Shown: piece by piece, positions 13,311-57,236 of the stretch
How the letters are laid out: every line of letters begins with the position of its first letter
How positions within the stretch are numbered: position 1 is the first letter of the stretch
NCBI RefSeq assembly: GCF_963506605.1
Contig: NC_083283.1
Coordinates: forward strand, 6,882,001 to 6,946,000
Direction: 5' to 3'
DNA from: Zootoca vivipara
Lineage: Eukaryota
DNA length: 64,000 nt
Notes under the pieces: generated by a model
The model's database searches: none
What the model was told of the DNA's origin: nothing
The model's input: only the letters and a program-made list of their open reading frames with translations
Program-made: the position numbers and the translations under genes

Positions 13311-14591
13311 TGACTGCTCTACACATTAAATGGGGGCGACCTTTACATGGTCACACACAGCCCCCTGATCCCATTAGGCGACTCCCTGGTAGTTCGGTGC
13401 TGGCACCGCCTTCCCAGGTAGGATGCCAGGGGTCTTCGCCTATCCCAGCCTAGCATCCAATCCTGCTTGGGGAGGTGTTGCCACAGGGTGGCCAGGTAAG
13501 GAGAGGGACTTTCCAGCTCACACAATAGAATTTGAATCTTACCTCCAAGCACTAGTTGGCTCCAGAGCTTCTCCCACCCTCCACACCCTTATTCAAGTTT
13601 CTTTTGCAGGTTAACCTTTTTTCCACAGGTACACAGGGGCTGCTACGTCAAGGTCGCTGTTGAAGGGCCGGAAAGGATTTTCCCTGCATTGGCAGGTTTT
13701 GCCTTTCCCATAGCAATACGTCACAACTTGGCGGTTTCAGGCCTTGGGCGAAATTCTTTGGCGATTTTCCTAGAGGGAGGGGTGTGAAGCGGAGACTTCA
13801 CCCCCTTGCGGCAACAAGATCGGGGTATTGGGGAAAGCGTTGACCATACCATTAGGTGTCATCGCTTCCCCCTTTCAGCGAATGGGGGGCGAGCTCTCTC
13901 TGCTTGAACATATGTTCTCCAGAGCCAGCCCCAACCCCCATGCATTTGGATAACCCCAAAGCCTCCCAGAACCATAGCTGCCAAGTATCCCGTTTCTGCC
14001 GGGAAAACCCCTTTTTTCTTACCATTTCCCGGTGGTCTCCTGTTTAGTTTTTAATCCCGATATTCTCCCTTAAATTGGCTTCTGCCGGCGGCCATTTTTC
14101 TGGTGCCGCTTTGCCCTTCTACGGGCACCAGAAAATGGCACCGCTGGCGCCGGAAGTCGCTTCCGCGCATGACTGGAAATGCATAAAAGCGACTTCCGAT
14201 GGCGCTTTGCCTTTCTATGGGCACCAGAAAATGGCGGCGCCGGAAGTCGCTTTTACGTGTTTCCGGCCATGTGTGGAAGCGACTTCCGGTGCTGGCCCCG
14301 CCATTTTCTGGTGCCCATAGAAGGGCAAAGCGCCACCGGAAGTTGCGTTCACACAACTTCCGGTGTGCGCGCGCTGCAGATCCCGGATCTTTCCGTCCAG
14401 GACTTGGCAGGTATGCCCAGAACCCCGGCTGGGGTCTGGGGAGGATAATGCCCAATGCCTGAGCCAAGGTCTCCCTACATCTGAATCTTAATAAAGTTGT
14501 GGCCAATTTGAATCCCATAGCACATTGTATTGCGTCATTATCCCACTCAGGGGGTCGCCTGGGATTTGGGGGACTCCGCCTGTCCACGGAA
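13311..14591 (+). mobile_element. Non-coding insertion element, probably a solo repeat of an Ngaro/DIRS-like tyrosine-recombinase retrotransposon (830 bp after removing the nested MITE)
   Basis: Precisely interrupts a SINE with no TSD beyond AA. Shares AGCAATAYGTCACAACTTG, AATAAAGTTGTGGCC and an ACG(G/C)AA end with 56188-57056. The family assignment is inference. Confidence 0.6.
13973..14415. mobile_element. hAT MITE with internal GC-rich repeats
   Basis: TIRs CATAGCTGCCAAGT / ACTTGGCAGGTATG and a perfect 8-bp TSD CCCAGAAC; repeated CCGGAAGTCGC and GGGCACCAGAAAATGGC units. Confidence 0.85.
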
Positions 14592-15309
14592 ATGGCATTT
14601 CTGTTCACACTGGTTTCCGTCACAGTGTTCCGTTGCACCAGAAGTGGTTTAGTCATGCTGGCCACATGACCCAGAAAGCTGTCTGTGGACAAACGCCAGC
14701 TCCCTCGGCCTGAAACGAGATGAGCGCCACAACCCCATAGTCGCCTTTGACTGGACTTAACCATCCAGGGGTCCTTCACCTTTCCTATTTCCTAAGAAAC
14801 ACTTGAGATGTTGCTGATCCTATGTCTTCCACAAGCTTGCCCTTCAGTTCACCAAAATCACCACCTTGTGAAAGTATTGTTTTAATACAATTGTTACAAC
14901 GACATGTTTAGGCAGCATACTATGAGGGAAATATGCATAGTCAATTTGCAACATGCTTTGCATTTACACAGAAATATGTTAGCAGTTTAGAAATCCCAAG
15001 AAAAATAAATCAATATTAGGAATATGTTTTCCATGTGATGTAGACGCCAGTTCAACTGAAACATGGAGGTTATCTGTGATCCATGGAATGGAGGTTATCT
15101 GTGATCAATATGCCTAATGCTCTGAGAAGAATGTCAATCAACTCTACAGTAAGTCAGGTACGGCAGGTGTGGCAATTTTTCCACTGTCTTGTGGAATCAT
15201 TTGCAGTTGATGTGGCCTGATGATGTCTACAAGATACTTGTGTTGTGGCTTTTCATCTGACGATGTGCCCTTTGGATCTCTGTCCATCCTAGCTGGTGAA
15301 AGCCAGCTG

Positions 15310-20558: not shown

Positions 20559-21712
20559 TATCTACTATTTGGGGGTGAGGGGAATAAACCGTATTGTTGA
20601 TTCTGCACTCCGATACACAAGAACAGTTTCAGGTTAAGAACAGACCTCCAGAACGAATTAAGTTCTTTACCCGAGATACCACTGTATTTGGATTCGCCCC
20701 TCCCCCCAGTTTAATTCATGGGATTTCTAGACCTTCCCACCTGCAGCAGGAATGCCTTAACCTTAATTTTAATGCCTCCCTCCCCCCACCACACACACTT
20801 CTGCCCTTACTGCTTTGTAAGTTAGTGGCAATTGTTACTTCCTCTCCAAATCTACCAACCGCAACTGACTAAAGCCCACCTACTTCATTAAAGAGCTCTG
20901 CTCATTCCCTGTTGATGAGCTCAAAACATGGAACTCCCCACCCTTAAGTATCTATCCAAGACGGAACCTTTTGCAAGGTTGCAATACAGAAGTAGGTGGG
21001 CACGGGAAACTTCTTCATGTTCCAGGGTTTTCATTTTTCAGGTTACCCCCCCCAAAAAAAAGTGGGCTTCAGAAGGCATATGGTGGCTTTGCAGGGATTG
21101 AACTAAATGACCCTTAGGGTCCCTTCCACCTCTACAATTCTGTGATTCTATGATTCCAAGTCAAAACGATTTTGGCCATACTAGTGGAGTTTGTGCCAAA
21201 TAGAAACTGTCTTCAGTCACGGGAAAACACTGCAAACTCATCTGTATAAGCTCAAGCGAGATGTGAATATTGAATACAAATTAAATAGGCTACAGGAAAT
21301 GCAACCTGAAGTTATGGACATTTGCTTAGTAGAATCTAGAATGCCATAGCATAAACTAGATAAAAGTAATGGTATTTTGGGATCATCAGCACCTCGTTTC
21401 AACAGAGGTCTCCGCTTCCCCTGTTGAGCTTTCCTCCTCCTTGAAAACATTCTGTAGGATAGCTTTCATACTCTTCCTGGGTCTGCCTCTCTTCTGTCTC
21501 CCAAGCAGGAAATAGATCAAAGGGTTAACACTGCTGTTCAGGCAGGAAAATAAGTAGACATAATTTGAAGAAAAGGTAGAGGCTGAACCAGAAACATAAA
21601 GGCTTATGTAATGGGCATTCAGTGGAAATGAAAAAATGATGAAGCAAAGAAGAGCAAGCAAGATGGCTATTAGAGCTTTCCCCTGCCTTCGCTGTTGTGA
21701 TTTGAAGGAGAC

Positions 21713-22088
21713 TGTTATGTACTGAGCTGAATCCTAGAACAATAGGATTCAGAATCAGCGGGAGCTACCCAATCCAACTCCAGGTGGAAGTGAATCCGCA
21801 ACCTGATTGGCCTGCTGGAGCAGCCAATCAGGCGGCTGGCAGAAGTGAATCTGCTACCTGATTGGCCTGTAGGAGCAGCCAATCAGGCTGCAGGCAGAAG
21901 TCAATCCACAATATAATTGGCCCACAGGTGTAGCCCTGAAGTAGCCAATCACGCAAGGCCCATTGTGTAAATAATGTATATAAGCAGATGGTTTTGGGAA
22001 AAGAGCCACTCGTCTTCTCTTCTCCTCCTTGATGACTATGAGCTGAATAAAGAGCATGAAATTCACTCTCGACTCCGAGTATATTTCA
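21713..22088 (+). repeat. 5' LTR
   Basis: TGTTATGT...ATATTTCA; CCAAT boxes, TATATAA and AATAAA; identical by eye to 26298-26673. Confidence 0.95.
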
Positions 22089-26297: not shown

Positions 26298-26673
26298 TGT
26301 TATGTACTGAGCTGAATCCTAGAACAATAGGATTCAGAATCAGCGGGAGCTACCCAATCCAACTCCAGGTGGAAGTGAATCCGCAACCTGATTGGCCTGC
26401 TGGAGCAGCCAATCAGGCGGCTGGCAGAAGTGAATCTGCTACCTGATTGGCCTGTAGGAGCAGCCAATCAGGCTGCAGGCAGAAGTCAATCCACAATATA
26501 ATTGGCCCACAGGTGTAGCCCTGAAGTAGCCAATCACGCAAGGCCCATTGTGTAAATAATGTATATAAGCAGATGGTTTTGGGAAAAGAGCCACTCGTCT
26601 TCTCTTCTCCTCCTTGATGACTATGAGCTGAATAAAGAGCATGAAATTCACTCTCGACTCCGAGTATATTTCA
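26298..26673 (+). repeat. 3' LTR
   Basis: Identical by eye to the 5' LTR. Confidence 0.95.
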
Positions 26674-28489
26674 GAGACCTTGAAGCACAGAATTAGAGTT
26701 GAGATAGTCATGAGCAGGAGGCAAAGGATGCCGTTCACAACATAATGGTAATGTCTCATGGTATAATTGTTCACCTTTTCAGTCAGGTAGAGGGTGAAGT
26801 TAATTCCACCAAGAAGGCTTGAAAGTACCCATATTACAGAACACAAAGTGGTGGACAAATTTGCTGGCCGGTGGCATCGATGCCAAATTGGGAAGAGGAC
26901 TGACACGCACCTGTCAATGCTGATGGCTGTCAGTAGATATTGACTAGCACTGTACATTACTTGAAATACATTTTCAAGAAAAAGATACACAGGTCCATCA
27001 TATATTCCTGTTGCAAACCAAATGATTTCTATAAACAAGTTAGCTGTGACTACACCCAAGTCAGCAACAGAGAGGTTCAGGATGTAAATGGTGAAATGGT
27101 TCCTCTTAATGCAGAAGCTAAGCAGCCAGACGACAGTCCCATTCCCTAAAAGCCCCAAAATGCAAATTAAAATTGTGAGTATAGACAAAACCTTTCCTTC
27201 TATGTCAAGATATGAAATACTTTCTGGATAATCATAACTCCCATTGTTGGGGAACCAAGTTGCATTGTCTTCTCCATAATGGCCGCCTTCAGCATCGACA
27301 GGAGACAGGGCCATTGGGCTGAAACTGGGCATTGTACTCAGTCGTCGCTGTTGAGTTTCTTCTTGTGTAGATATGTCTGCTGGGGGTGGAGAGGGTGGGA
27401 TTAGTTTTTGCTAATGAATAAAGATGAAGCCAAAGTTTTTCAGCCTACTCTTCCTTGTCTTTGTGAGTTAATTCCTAATATGAGAGTTAATTTTTAAGGT
27501 GAAATGGCTCATCTGTTTCATCTCCAGTTCAAGCTGTGTCTTCAGTAACAAACCTATTATCAGGGACTGGCTGGATGAGGAGGAGTGGTGGGAGCCTCCT
27601 GCCCTATAGCACCCCCCCTCCCGGAAGGACACAGAAGATTAGGACATTTTTATTCCAGCTGAAATCTATACTGCCACATGGCTACTGAAATGATTTCTCT
27701 CCCATCTCTGTCTCTGCAGAGCACAAGGGATGGGGTGGTGTTTGTCCTCCTGTCAATCACCTGACATCATAAGTGGTTGTCAGGTGCTTCAGAAGTTACA
27801 CAAGGAGCCTTTGCAGGCATGGTTAGTTAAGCCCAATTTGGTCAAGCTCTACTTTTCTTCCTCACACAAACTGGGTTCATGGCATGAATGCAGAAGGTTG
27901 ACAGGCCATATTTGGCCCATCGGCTGGAGGTTCCCCACCCCTGTTTTATAGAGGTTCAAAGATGTTTGGGTCATGCATTGGAGCCATGTCCACTTGCCAA
28001 TGAACAACGGGGAGCTTGCTCCATGGCTCCTGGTTGTTCCTTTGCGGTTTCACTGGCCAAATTAATAACCTGGCTTGGACTAAATTTCTCCATGGGTTTG
28101 GAGATTCTCAGTGTTTGATCTAGTACAACATCAGGCTCAGCACAGTCCCTGTCCTACTGGAGAAGGCAAAACAGAAATGGGGAACACAGAACAAGATGGA
28201 AAAAAGTGGTGAAACTGGTTTACTGAGATAAGCAAGAGAAAACGGACCCAGGTAATTGAAACAGAATTGCTTCAGTGAGGGAGAAATAAATGATATACTT
28301 GAACATATGCCTTATATTAGCCCCCTCTTCATCCATCGTGCATTCAGTAAGTGCATAGGAGGGAGAGCATATTTGTCAAAGCAGATCCTGTCTGTGACCT
28401 CCACACAGCCATCTGGAGAACTTGTGGAGCCATTTAGATGTACATGAGTGAACACACAGTCTCTGCCTATTCATTCTGGGATGCTCCCT

Positions 28490-29443: not shown

Positions 29444-29707
29444 ATAAAAAAAATTCCTTCAGTAGCACCTTAAAGACCAACTAAGTTTTTATTTTGGTAT
29501 GAGCTTTCGTGTGCATGCACACTTCTTCAGATACAGTGAAATGGAAGTTTCCAGGCACTTATGTAGAGAAGGGGTGGGGAGGGGTGGGGATGGGGAGGGG
29601 GGATCACTCAGAAGGGTGGTGGAAATGGGTGATTGACTGACTGATAGCTGTTGATGACCGCAAACGACTGCAAATGGTTTTGCATGAAAAAGCAAGGGTT
29701 GAGATGG
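29444..29707 (-). mobile_element. Penelope 3' terminal-repeat fragment
   Basis: Essentially identical to 30360-30622; lies at the edge of the inverted duplication. Confidence 0.85.
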
Positions 29708-30411
29708 ACTCAAGCGGAGTTACTCTAGGGTAGCCACGACGACCCTCTGAGGTATCGCAATACATGAACATAGCCTTGGCACATGATGTCTGCAGTTAAA
29801 TGTCAGACAGTTATGGTCTATCATCAAATCTATTTTGCTTGGACATGTAGATATGAGAGACAGAGGTGAAGAAGTACTAGAAACAAAGTGGGTGTTGTTG
29901 TTTTCGTGAAAAATGACTGCGAGTTCAGGTTCTCCCCTCACCCCATGTTCCTGAATATCATTTCTCTGAAATTATCGGAAAAAATCCTCCTGAGAAAACT
30001 CCCTTGTTATGTCAATATTCTTCTGCTGCAATTCAGAATTGTGCCTGAACAAAAACAAAAAAGTATTCTGAAACTAGTAGAAGCAACAGTAGTAACTTTG
30101 TTTCAAATCCAACAAACACTTTCAGCTAGGAAACAAAGTTTGTTCTTTGTTTCTTTGTTTCATTTTATTTTTAAATGGTCTTGATGGGACATCTTACATT
30201 TGCTATAACCTAGAATGTGTTTTGTGCTCTTTTCCATATCCATTATTATTTTAACCCAGTTAAGAATTGAAATTTAGAAGCCTTTTTATGATTCTGTTCA
30301 ACCACTGCATCTCTCCTGAAATACAGGTAGGTAGCCGTGTTGGTCTGGATCGAAGTAAAATAAAAAAATTCCTTCAGTAGCACCTTAAAGACCAACTAAG
30401 TTTTTATTTTG

Positions 30412-30449
30412 GTATGAGCTTTCGTGTGCATGCACACTTCTTCAGATAC
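30412..30449 (-). ncRNA. Minimal type I hammerhead ribozyme motif (Penelope-associated)
   Basis: Reverse complement of the motif at 31802-31839. Confidence 0.7.
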
Positions 30450-31801
30450 AGTGAAATGGAAGTTTCCAGGCACTTATGTAGAGAAGGGGTGGGGAGGGGT
30501 GGGGATGGGGAGGGGGGATCACTCAGAAGGGTGGTGGAAATGGGTGATTGACTGACTGATAGCTGTTGATGACCGCAAACGACTGCAAATGGTTTTGCAT
30601 GAAAAAGCAAGGGTTGAGATGGCTGAAGATCGCTTATCATGTATAATGAGATAAGAACCCGATATCTCTGTTCAAACCAGGTCCCTCCATGGTTTTGAGC
30701 TTGGTGATAAGTTGCAATTCAGCAACTTCTCTTTCCAGTCTATTTCTGAAATTCTTTTGTAGTAAGACAGCTACTTTGAGATCTTGTATAGAATGTCCTG
30801 GGAGATTGAAGTGTTCTCCTACTGGTTTTTCTGTCTTCTGGTTCCTGATGTCAGATTTATGTCCATTTATCCTTTGGCGTAGGGTTTGGCCTGTTTGTCC
30901 AATATAGAGAGCTGAAGGGCACTGTTGGCATTTGATGGCATACACAATGTTAGAGGATGAGCAATTAAATAGTCCTGAGATGGTATGTTGGATGTTGTTG
31001 GGGCCAGTAATGGTGTTGTCTGGGTGTATGTGGCAGCAAAGTTGGCATCTGGGTTTATTGCAGGCTCTGGTACCAGTGTCCATGTTAAGTCTGGGAGGAA
31101 GACCTTTCATTGCCTACAGACAGCCACCCAATCTTAAACAACTCCTCACCCACAATAATACAACCACCAGACTTAACATGGACACTGGTACCAGAGCCTG
31201 CAATAAACCCAGATGCCAACTTTGCTGCCACATACACCCAGACAACACCATTACTGGCCCCAACAACATCCAACATACCATCTCAGGACTATTTAATTGC
31301 TCATCCTCTAACATTGTGTATGCCATCAAATGCCAACAGTGCCCTTCAGCTCTCTATATTGGACAAACAGGCCAAACCCTACGCCAAAGGATAAATGGAC
31401 ATAAATCTGACATCAGGAACCAGAAGACAGAAAAACCAGTAGGAGAACACTTCAATCTCCCAGGACATTCTATACAAGATCTCAAAGTAGCTGTCTTACT
31501 ACAAAAGAATTTCAGAAATAGACTGGAAAGAGAAGTTGCTGAATTGCAACTTATCACCAAGCTCAAAACCATGGAGGGACCTGGTTTGAACAGAGATATC
31601 GGGTTCTTATCTCATTATACATGATAAGCGATCTTCAGCCATCTCAACCCTTGCTTTTTCATGCAAAACCATTTGCAGTCGTTTGCGGTCATCAACAGCT
31701 ATCAGTCAGTCAATCACCCATTTCCACCACCCTTCTGAGTGATCCCCCATCCCCATCCCCACCCCTTCTCTACATAAGTGCCTGGAAACTTCCATTTCAC
31801 T

Positions 31802-35897: not shown

Positions 35898-36076
35898 ATG
35901 GTCCCTTCCACCTCTACAATTCTATGCTTCTATGATTCTAAGTCAAAATAATTTGGCCTGCAGTTATGGACATTTGCTTAGTAGAAACTAGAATGTCATT
36001 GTATAAACTAAATAAAAGTGATGGTATTCTGAGCACATCAGAACTTTGTTTCAGCAGAGGTCTCCGCTTTCTCTGT

Positions 36077-37018
36077 TCAGTTTTCCTCCTCCTTGAAAAC
36101 ATTCTGTAGAATAGCTTTCATGCTCTTCCTGGGTCTGCCTCTCTTCTGTCTCCCAACCAGGAAATAGATCAAAGGATTAATACTGCTGTTCAGGCAGGCA
36201 GATAAGTAGACATGATTTACGTAAATGGTAGAGTCTGAATCAAAAACATAACCACTGATGTAATAGGCATTCAGTGGAAACGAAAAAATGATGAAGAAAA
36301 GAAGAGCAAGCAAGATGATTATTAGAGTTTTACCCCGCCTTCGCTGTTGTGATTTGAAGGAGACCTTGAGGCACAGAATTAGAGTTGAGATAGTCATGAG
36401 CAGGAGGCAAAGAATGCCGTTCACAGCATACTGGTTGTGTTTCATGGTATAATTGGCCACCATTTCAGTCAGGCGGAGGGTGAAGTTAATTCCACAGAGT
36501 AAGTTAGAAAGTACCCATATTGCAGAACACAAAGTATTGGACAAATTTGCTGGCCGGTGGCATCGATGCCAAATTGGGAAGAGGACTGACACACACCTGT
36601 CAATGCTGATGACTGTCAGTAGATATTGACCAGCACTGTACATTACTTGAAAGACATCTTCAAGAAAATGATACACAGGTCCATCATACATTCCTGTTGC
36701 ATACCAAATTATTTCCATAAAACAGTTAGCTGTGACTACACCCAAGTCAGCAACAGAGAGGTTCAGGATGTAAATGGTGAAAGGGTTCCTCTTAATGCAG
36801 AAGCTAAGCAGCCAGACGACAGTCCCATTCCCTAAAAGCCCCAAAATGCAAATTAAAATTGTGAATATAGACAAAATATATCCTTCTATGTCAATATCTG
36901 AAATACTTTCTGGATAATCATAACTCCTGTTGTTGGAGAACCAAGTTGCATTGTCTTCTCCATAATGGCCACCTTCAGCATTGAAAGGAGACAGGGCCAT
37001 TGGGCTGAAACTGGCCAT
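36077..37018 (-). CDS. Mas-related GPCR, 313 aa (C-terminus shortened by a premature stop)
   Basis: All seven TMs, SIDRC, NSSINPLIYF. After TGA the frame continues TEKAETSAETKF*, matching the paralog tail. Confidence 0.9.
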   Translation of the reverse strand: MASFSPMALSPFNAEGGHYGEDNATWFSNNRSYDYPESISDIDIEGYILSIFTILICILGLLGNGTVVWLLSFCIKRNPFTIYILNLSVADLGVVTANCFMEIIWYATGMYDGPVYHFLEDVFQVMYSAGQYLLTVISIDRCVSVLFPIWHRCHRPANLSNTLCSAIWVLSNLLCGINFTLRLTEMVANYTMKHNQYAVNGILCLLLMTISTLILCLKVSFKSQQRRRGKTLIIILLALLFFIIFSFPLNAYYISGYVFDSDSTIYVNHVYLSACLNSSINPLIYFLVGRQKRGRPRKSMKAILQNVFKEEEN

Positions 37019-37312
37019 TGAACTCAGTTGTTGCTGTTGTGCTTCTTCTTGTGTAGATATGTCTGCTGGGGGTGGAGAGGGTGGGATTAGTCTTTGATAA
37101 TGAATAAAGATGAAGCTAAAGCTTTTCAGCCTACTCTTTCTTGTCTTTGTGAGTTAATTCTTGAGTTAATTCCTAATATGAGAGTTAATTTTTAAGGTGA
37201 AATGGCTCATCTGTTTCATCTCCATTTCAGGCTGCCTCTTCAGTAAAAAAACTAATGTCAGGGACTGGCTGGATGAGGAGGAGTGTCTGTTTAAGGCTTC
37301 AACTTTTATATT

Positions 37313-55670: not shown

Positions 55671-56017
55671 TAACTCTGTTCATGTCAGTGTGCAAAATGC
55701 TTGCTAATTATCCCACTGAGGAATGGCTCTCCTGCTACCTTTCCAGGTGAAGTATGTTCACATACCTGTGATAATCTGTGGCTCAGATATCATGAGCGGG
55801 AGGAAGCAGGAGGAACAGAATTCTGTGCTGGGGAAAGTAGGCAATCAAAGGATTTGTAGGAATCAGTGCAATCCCCAAGTCACAAGGAAAACTTGTAAGA
55901 CTAACCAAGCTGAATTCAAGATGTCCTGTAAATTATCCTCTTCTCTTTGTCTGCGCTTAATCAGTTTGCCAACAGCTTGTGACAAGAAGAAACTGTTTCT
56001 TTACTGGTGATCAAGAT

Positions 56018-57236
56018 AGGTAAAGGTAAAGGGATCCCTTACCATTAGGTCCGGTCGTGACCGACTCTAGGGTTGCGGCGCTCATCTCACGTAATTGGCC
56101 AAGGGAGCCAGCGTACAGCTTCCAGGTCACGTGGCCAGCATCACAAAGCCACTTCTGGCAAACCAGAGGAGCACGCGGAAATGCTGTTTGCGTAACAAGG
56201 CCCCAAGAAATCCCAATAACTCACAACGGACACAATAATTATGGTTTGGTTTTTGGCATTAACTTTTTGGCCACAACTTTATTTAAAATACAAATTAATT
56301 TCGAGTGTTGGCTTAGGCTTTGGTTAATCCTTCTGTCCACCCTAAGGGACAGGACCATTTCCATCTGACCACTGGGTCAGGACCATACCATCTGCTCAGT
56401 TAAGCAGGACCAATTCCATCTGACCATTTGGGTCAGGACCAACTCCGACTTACCTTGTGGTTGGTAAGTCAAGTAAACACCCCAAGGGATTGGAGGTACG
56501 GTTTCCCAGTACTCTCCTTCCCCCAAGGAGTGTTCCCCGAGGCTCGGCTCTGTAATGGACACACCATCCTTGCTTAAGGCCGGATGATGGACTAGAGTCC
56601 CTGAGCCCCAGGATTCCTTTAACAGAATACTTCTATAAGGAGCCAATAATTGGGGGATAGGCCTATAGGCCATGCCCCTCCAAAACCATTTAACCAAAGC
56701 CTAACGGCCAACCTAACAAGTTGTGACATATTGCTCGTCAGTAGGCGAAAACCACATGGCAACAGCCAATCAGCCAAGTGGAAAAATTCCTACTGAACTC
56801 CTGAATACAGCGAGCCCCGCTAATCGGGCAAGCAGTGTCGGCTAAGGCCTAAAATCAGCGGCGGGTGGGTGGGGATTCGAAGCTTCTCAATCGGACTGGG
56901 CAGAAACGAAAGTGAGCGATCATTAAGTTAGAAGTGCCTGTCAATCAAACTCAAGGCACGCCCCGTGACTCAGCTTAACATTTTAACCCACCCCCTCCCA
57001 GATTTCTCTCAGGCCTGTCCGCAAACGCCACTACACTTTATTGAGTGTAATGGTCCTTACCTTCCCGCTGGAGCGGTACCTATTTATCTACTTGTACTTT
57101 GACGTGCTTTCAAACTGCTAGGTTGGCAGGAGCTGGGACCAAACAACAGGAGCTCACCCCGTCGTGAGGAAGCGGCAACCTTCTGATCGGCAAGCCCTAG
57201 GCTCTGCGGTTTAACCCACAGCACCACCCGCATCTC
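56018..57236 (-). mobile_element. Sauria SINE split by an insertion
   Basis: Halves 56018-56187 and 57057-57236 match the intact SINEs at 7000 and 8690. Confidence 0.88.
56188..57056 (-). mobile_element. Non-coding insertion element (869 bp), probably an Ngaro/DIRS-like solo repeat
   Basis: Same SINE position, orientation and motifs as 13311-14591; internal ~27-bp CAGGACCA repeats at 56348-56445. The family assignment is inference. Confidence 0.6.

Follow-up and report, generated by a model that had tools for sequence, protein, structure and literature searches.

Solo A-X-B units of two Ngaro families in interrupted SINEs of Zootoca vivipara: a short target motif and a conserved, predicted ENE-like spacer fold

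Among described vertebrate Ngaro elements, those with an SGNH ORF, such as DIRS-53_XT of Xenopus, have the same A1-ORFs-B1-A2-B2 repeats, gag, RT/RH, YR and SGNH as the lizard elements studied here, and likewise no methyltransferase (PMC9210276, as excerpted). In contrast to this type, the lizard elements carry a unique spacer X of 158-162 bp between A2 and B2, their repeats are longer (B 440-710 bp) and solo units greatly outnumber long copies; neither solos nor target sites occur as terms in PMC9210276. In the protist Cafeteria burkhardae, Ngaro solo AB units likewise occur as isolated units scattered in the genome, some of them within another repeated element, and are ascribed to recombination between repeats, whereas the available text mentions no spacer, target motif or RNA fold (PMC8547959). 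The same anatomy of A, unique internal piece and B is described for SIRE, the A2-spacer-B2 unit of VIPER from Trypanosoma cruzi, and whether such units are mobile or remnants is a question posed in the excerpted source (PMC6681497). However, VIPER belongs to a different YR clade and its spacer measures about 30 bp, compared with 160 bp in the lizard Ngaro. Thus, going by these partial texts, solo Ngaro or AB units are already known. DIRS-1 in turn is described with inverted repeats and an ICR, whereas the shared core of the lizard Ngaro is the AA within R-B-A-A|W (PMC7192593, in part). A further point of reference are the ENEs, for which the available parts of two sources list as hosts viruses, MALAT1/MENbeta and elements of plants, fungi, slime mould and stickleback, Ngaro not being among them (PMC12501189; PMC7583470).

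The window analysed here is the whole 64-kb stretch at positions 6,882,001-6,946,000 of NC_083283.1 (C8:6882001-6946000) from Zootoca vivipara, and the genome searched comprises 1.44 Gb. Reading of the sequence confirmed that two SINEs of the window are interrupted as claimed by the original prediction: the first reads GGGAAGGTAA|TGAC...CCACGGAA|ATGGCATTTC and the second, on the minus strand, GGGAAGGTAA|GGAC...TTACGCAA|ACAGCATTTCC (Table 1). Exact GGGAAGGTAA is found at five places in the window, two being the interrupted SINEs, and two of the six SINE copies detected by blastn within the window are occupied. The host SINEs are about 350 bp long, end in an (ACCTTT)n tail and occur in tens of thousands of copies; they are called Sauria-type after the original prediction and by these features and not by alignment to a Repbase consensus. 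Tail type and copy numbers of Sauria SINEs are described elsewhere (PMC13295347).

Other details of the prediction held as well. The inserts are similar in net length, 830 bp for insert A, since a nested element of 443 bp sits inside it, and 869 bp for insert B. Both contain an exact AATAAAGTTGTGGCC near the 3' end (0.22 expected at up to two mismatches), and otherwise they are poorly alignable, with blastn matches of 17-19 nt only. The host SINEs differ, the joined empty site of A being nearest to the 41.3-kb copy (76%) and that of B to the 8.7-kb copy (87%). Furthermore, the inserts are unequal in age, as judged from about 90% (A; 88-91%) versus 97% (B) identity to their nearest relatives, and therefore go back to separate insertion events. 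Consistent with the prediction, we are dealing with two independent insertions and not with one duplicated SINE composite. Apart from the inserts, blastn revealed long near-identical repeats in the window (21305-22088, 26298-27587 and 35957-37285), a pair of 376 bp with 100% identity (21713-22088 and 26298-26673) and a second such pair of 261 bp (29447-29707 and 30362-30622).

Table 1. Coordinates of the two inserts, their parts and their host SINEs within the window.
Feature	Positions	Strand	Basis or remark
Host SINE 1, left half, Sauria-type, ends GGGAAGGTAA	13138..13310	+	blastn to intact window copies; sequence
Insert A: solo A-X-B unit, Ngaro family A, 830 bp net	13311..14591	+	~88-91% identity to best relatives
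Repeat A of insert A, upper bound	13311..13551	+	one internally deleted A-SGNH-B copy (L167)
Spacer X of insert A, left edge approximate; splice-acceptor-like TTTTGCAG at 13602	13552..13728	+	comparison of copies
Predicted ENE-like hairpin of insert A: stem GGAAAGG/CCTTTCC flanking U-rich internal loop	13670..13708	+	predicted fold
Repeat B of insert A, split by nested element; AATAAAGTTGTGGCC at 14490-14504	13729..14591	+	matched by L165, L166 and L167 starting at insert position 419
Nested non-autonomous DNA element, 443 bp, terminal inverted repeats	13973..14415	+	8-bp duplication CCCAGAAC at 13965 and 14416
Host SINE 1, right half	14592..14790	+	blastn
Host SINE 2, right half, ACCTTT-type tail	56016..56187	-	sequence; blastn
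Insert B: solo A-X-B unit, Ngaro family B, 869 bp	56188..57056	-	up to 97% identity to dispersed copies
Repeat B of insert B, 524 bp (346-869); AATAAAGTTGTGGCC at 56283-56269, ends CGCAA	56188..56711	-	after SGNH ORF in L061, L065 and L066
Spacer X of insert B, 162 bp (184-345)	56712..56873	-	in long copies, confined to between A2 and B2
GTCACAACTT at X end, complementary to AAGTTGTGGC over poly(A) signal; second occurrence in insert A at 13720	56718..56727	-	pairing predicted with probabilities of 0.58-0.95 in both window copies
Predicted ENE-like hairpin of insert B: stem CAGTAGG/CCTACTG, loops AATTTTT + TTTTCG, upper stem CCA/TGG	56739..56795	-	fold z -3.4
Repeat A of insert B, 183 bp (1-183); 5' hairpin 57050-57031	56874..57056	-	matches 5' end of long copies L065 and L066
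Host SINE 2, left half, Sauria-type, ends GGGAAGGTAA	57057..57237	-	sequence; blastn

Each insert is a member of a dispersed family; 40 candidate relatives were scored per insert, and the flanks of the 30+30 best loci examined are unrelated. The original prediction further proposed a search for long copies with RT-RNaseH-recombinase ORFs between split direct repeats, and such copies were found among the relatives. A search of the genome with the coding core yielded 47 matches, and 20 of these stretches plus L061 were examined. Seven of the 21 loci show the order A1-gag-RT/RH-YR-SGNH-B1-A2-X-B2 (L070, L072, L075, L077, L078, L079 and L083), with split repeats that are 99.6-100% identical in six of them (all but L070). 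The other 14 comprise nine copies with a single B and without X, three partial ones, L061 with the 3' part only, and L084, a tandem neighbour of L083. For family B itself, split direct repeats are represented by B1-A2-X-B2 in L061 and by A1-ORFs-B in L065 and L066; for family A by rearranged remnants only.

Within the long copies, the RT matches PF00078 (E 1e-12 and 9e-12). RNase H gave no Pfam match in the long-copy proteins and no significant match in a PDB search; by eye we recognised acidic motifs in the pol frame which we take to be those of RNase H, and the frame ends about 30 residues past the last of them. The YR lies downstream of RT/RH on the same strand and matches PF00589 below the curated cut-off (E 2e-5 to 2e-4) and, with E 3e-5 to 3e-4, PF02899, for which two of four proteins exceed the cut-off; what are presumably the R, HxxR and Y motifs of a tyrosine recombinase were recognised as well. 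It is followed by an SGNH hydrolase ORF (PF13472, E 6e-5 and 8e-5, below cut-off), for which the L061 copy gave no match to this family, and no methyltransferase family was found at E<=0.1 in the long-copy proteins. At the resolved insertion sites a TSD is absent, and short junction homology is seen instead. Thus the predicted class, solo repeats of a tyrosine-recombinase element without TSD, was right for both inserts. The anatomy of the long copies agrees with the definition of Ngaro in the available parts of PMC9210276 and PMC4157794. Judged by sequence, the elements fit Ngaro on each structural feature tested, and both inserts are A2-spacer-B2 ends standing alone, from two Ngaro families.

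One could instead take the inserts for conventional solo LTRs left by an ERV or a Gypsy element, a reading suggested by their size of about 850 bp, the promoter-like 5' part, AATAAA near the 3' end and the fact that solos far outnumber long copies. However, TG...CA ends and a target duplication of 4-6 bp are missing. Only 12 of 65 sites share at least four letters between left flank and element end, and this likeness is due to the RCAA motif. Since the long copies encode a tyrosine recombinase and their repeats are split and not terminal, the solo LTR is refuted and we give it virtually no chance.

The signature AATAAAGTTGTGGCC has 8,368 matches genome-wide (control 0), and the first 30 signature loci span many families, most of which end in C-R-C-A-A about 75-100 nt past the start of the motif. 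The signature is clustered on contig C1 at 12.0-12.95 Mb, with 24 matches in less than 1 Mb, whereas the genome as a whole averages about 6 per Mb. Two young full-length Ngaro copies stand head to tail (L083:244-8650 and from L083:8651 into L084), the second starting at the CAA end of the first. Among the coding-core matches are five young long copies, L078 and L079 being two of them, whose 100% identical repeats are intact and which share a deletion of about 436 bp inside the RT; this defective lineage seems to have been copied in trans.

In insert A, the extent of repeat A was delimited with L167, in which positions 1-241 of the insert are followed by the C-terminus of SGNH and then by B. 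The nested element, which we take to be hAT-like, is missing in the 29 other family-A loci compared; it is rich in palindromes, and a related short element lies inside another solo (L130). The B part of family A adjoins SGNH remnants in L107/L167 and in L113/L165 (2 of 120 loci scanned), and beside one of these two loci YR and RNase H pieces are found in inverted orientation. A genome-wide search via the B|A junction brought up no intact long parent for family A, its two matches being decayed tandem or nested pieces. Consequently, the assignment of family A to Ngaro is a probable one, based on the SGNH/YR remnants at two loci and on common X motifs. For family B, positions 346-869 of insert B are followed by positions 1-869 in L061, and RT, tyrosine-recombinase and hydrolase-like frames lie upstream of this double unit. 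This B1-A2-X-B2 behind RT-YR-SGNH is 96-97% identical to insert B. Another solo of family B is split between positions 134 and 178 by an 821-codon ORF of a different element (L064:5304-7766, minus strand).

To describe the target, 90 loci were considered; 20 were without a clean end pair, one was a duplicate and three more were left out, namely both window copies and an internal junction in L005. From the remaining 66 sites the motif R-B-A-A|W emerges: position -2 is A in 64 of them and position -1 in 62, a purine stands at -4 in 61, a base other than A at -3 in 62 and A or T at +1 in 59, and no base bias is apparent beyond -4..+2. Two family-A solos on contig C1 (L102 and L103, at 21.96 and 22.06 Mb) have near-identical flanks 100 kb apart, which identifies a segmental duplication; one of them was dropped, and rates thus use 65 sites. 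The variant R-B-A-A|D fits 50 of these 65 sites and occurs once per 41 positions per strand. R-B-A-A|W resembles the element's own B|A junction (CGCAA|T/A/G), and a target like the element junction is what the circular-junction model of DIRS expects (PMC7192593, in the part available). The GGTAA|A site of the SINE conforms to the motif, and three full-length SINE copies contain 12-15 such sites each, counting both strands. No information about target sites was obtained from PMC3783388 and PMC6387122.

The part of the original prediction that did not stand is the SINE as a sequence-specific target. Among 69 resolved sites, SINE sequence on both sides was found at two, both of them the window's own, and the flanks share nothing but R-B-A-A|W. 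The occupancy of one third is a figure of the window; genome-wide it amounts to about 0.02% of the intact-pattern sites. The intact SINE site has 30,253 exact genome matches, and the left-junction pattern of families A and B has three (two being the window copies) compared with five for a control. A right-junction pattern built on CRCAA had ten matches, of which only two were Ngaro inserts, the rest being SINE variants, chance matches and SINE right halves without an upstream Ngaro signature. As this pattern missed insert A, which ends in CGGAA, it was replaced by a family-independent one. The family-independent pattern gave five genome matches, namely the two window copies, L202, L203 and L204. 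L202 is a clean insert of 792 bp, L204 has partly lost its left side and L203 is without a left half within 1.5 kb. The control SINE site GATAA|A holds two clean inserts. Based on the motif alone, 5.33 inserts are predicted at GGTAA|A (5 observed; P(at least 5)=0.62) and 3.75 at the control site (2 observed), with expectations built on 65 sites and on background from the examined loci, and with exact patterns that miss decayed copies.

A tyrosine-recombinase family that uses the Sauria SINE as a safe-harbour target would explain why the same base and orientation were hit in two SINE subfamilies within 43 kb, and fits the three further genome matches at the site (one without visible left half) and one more in RNA run X18. 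In the latter, 11 reads join a SINE left half ending in GGGAAGGT to the start of a third, young family, which would be a further match at GGTAA|A. However, the five occupied sites stand against about 8,368 signature-bearing ends (0.06%) and against the intact sites, and equal the motif expectation; 67 of the 69 resolved junctions do not lie within a SINE, and the strict right junction occurs in none of 449 family-A 3' ends. In its strong form, safe-harbour targeting is refuted, and we attach almost no probability to it. Under a uniform model, two of five occupied sites would lie 43 kb apart with a probability of about 6e-4, uncorrected for the many sites, repeats and windows scanned; in view of these many possibilities and of the signature clustering on C1, the coincidence appears tolerable.

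A mild preference for the GGTAA|A site, up to 2-3-fold and exerted, in addition to the short motif, through open chromatin or sequence at longer range, would be in line with five inserts at this site versus two at the control. Older solos may moreover have been in place before many of the SINE copies arose, so that the true expectation would be lower. On the other hand, the counts agree with expectations of 5.3 and 3.8, base bias is not apparent outside -4..+2, and SINE copies beyond the strict pattern would lift the expectation to 11-16, so that we consider this preference improbable. We are highly confident that both inserts are solo A-X-B units of two Ngaro families which insert at R-B-A-A|W genome-wide, and that the common SINE position is most likely due to chance. 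A literature search found no earlier description of a SINE-targeting element of this kind, and for solo Ngaro units in lizards it yielded unrelated work only.

Conservation of spacer X extends to families with A and B repeats that are hardly alignable. In 24 copies chosen for diversity, the 13 predicted pairs are paired to 92% and seven of the 13 show two-sided changes; kinship among the copies can inflate the pairing and covariation figures. The covariation score was reached by none of 500 shuffles, and slid controls were 29-58% paired. The core of X is a 7-bp stem whose last two pairs are G-C, with a U-rich strand on either side and a short stem on top. Two G-C pairs adjoin the loop in 23 of 24 rows, the upper C-G is present in 22 of 24, and three T columns of the 3' loop are invariant among the 24 copies. 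The loop is open in four of five single-sequence minimum-energy folds, but pairing of the 3' U-tract with the AA that precedes the 5' one is possible; two of the five folds are no better than shuffles.

This arrangement, a stem-loop with a U-rich loop next to G-C pairs, is that of the ENEs (KSHV PAN; Evade, PMC12501189; review PMC7583470), whose position on the sense strand, in a 3' non-coding spacer and upstream of the poly(A) signal, is shared by the X hairpin as far as the excerpts of PMC12501189 and PMC7583470 go. The X core fits the search definition for ENEs given in the available text of PMC7583470, and flanking G-C pairs are needed in the Evade ENE according to that of PMC12501189. In contrast to ENEs, X has the extra AA before the 5' U-tract and no Rfam match: at E<=5 nothing was found for insert B, and the insert A region gave sub-threshold hairpin matches only, mostly on the nested element. 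Taken together, the U-rich internal loop in covarying stems on the sense strand suggests an ENE-like fold of X. A ribozyme was considered as well and dropped, no hammerhead core being visible in X by eye. Distant metagenome relatives were of no use for the fold (4 YR loci, 25-33% identity).

The X hairpin motif occurs once in 9 of 9 B1-A2-X-B2 copies and in 0 of 9 long copies with a single B, and for 95 of 103 distinct matches AATAAAG follows on the same strand within 900 nt downstream. Besides the hairpin, X ends in GTCACAACTT in 59 of 77 copies and AAGTTGTGGC lies over the poly(A) signal in 68 of 77, in a sample partly picked by this motif. The helix between both has high predicted pairing in 14 of 14 folded copies, and its local control is moderate, a median of 8.5% of other B windows pairing more strongly, partly from the neighbouring helix. 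In addition, the first part of B pairs with the sequence preceding the poly(A) signal in 17 of 17 copies shown (-22 to -38 kcal/mol; 20 copies requested, three without anchor), with matched changes between families. Such long-range helices are predicted to bring the poly(A) site beside the U-rich loop. Alternatively, these helices could have a role in packaging, in circularising the cDNA or in concealing the poly(A) signal. We found no published ENE in DIRS/Ngaro and no report of X conservation in the literature; reviews and Repbase/Dfam might hold the solos, the motif or the fold.

At the RNA level, three raw runs contain mostly sense-strand RNA over a young family (612, 430 and 62 reads, the usual library orientation being assumed), and reads spanning X|B were found in X17 (28) and X18 (5). 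Six reads with three different starts, all from run X16, show a splice from a GT donor in gag (L075:3021) to an AG acceptor (6421) where the SGNH frame begins. Both splice sites are in phase 1, predicting an in-frame fusion of the Gag N-terminus with the hydrolase, and the donor context CAGGTTCGTC is kept in L065, L066, L070, L072 and L077. This spliced gag-hydrolase RNA bears on the expression of a hydrolase of unproven function. Likewise, X starts in several families with a pyrimidine tract and (C/T)AG|G that resemble a splice acceptor (56849-56856, minus strand, and 13602-13609, plus strand, in the window); no read joint into this site was listed in the RNA runs.

How then could the solos arise? 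Following the published DIRS model, Ngaro RNA would be copied into a circle, and the recombinase would cross the B|A junction of this circle with a look-alike genomic site, the crossover probably taking place at the AA core. Solos may result from the loss of everything between A1 and A2 after insertion, from the insertion of short A-X-B circles, or from both. Of 449 B-starts, the first 100 listed comprise 90 that come after X and ten that come after the SGNH frame; all ten of the latter have X-B about 1 kb further on, which leaves 80 X-B without a long partner. The copies that are at least 96% like the young family, among 30 examined, are four solos and two full-length elements. Two X|B junctions on contig C3 (25995988 and 25997060) lie 1,072 bp apart on one strand and are probably tandem solos. 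Recombination between A1 and A2 explains solos. However, recombination between B1 and B2 should be at least as easy, because the B repeats are longer and closer, and would yield long copies with a single B. Such copies are rare among old ones, with 3 of 30 family-A ends lacking A-X before B in that manner, and this would be compatible with short circles being inserted directly or with a strong purging of long copies.

The spacer X and repeat B are predicted to fold such that the U-rich ENE-like loop comes to lie next to the B2 poly(A) site, which would likely stabilise only RNAs that contain X. One might go further and speculate that an ENE-type triple helix in X, clamped to this site, stabilises X-RNAs, that short A-X-B RNA or cDNA is circularised and integrated, and that the solos are mobile mini-elements and not scars of recombination. 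We hold this scenario only tentatively and consider it rather unlikely as a whole. If true, it would represent, as far as the literature was searched, the first ENE in a tyrosine-recombinase retrotransposon.

Independent of this scenario, the 66 sites yield a target motif for a vertebrate Ngaro recombinase, and the conserved, covarying spacer fold bears on how Ngaro handles two identical poly(A) signals. With young full-length elements, long copies with a single B and thousands of solos in one genome, Zootoca vivipara offers a testing ground for the question raised by SIRE, namely whether such units are mobile or remnants.
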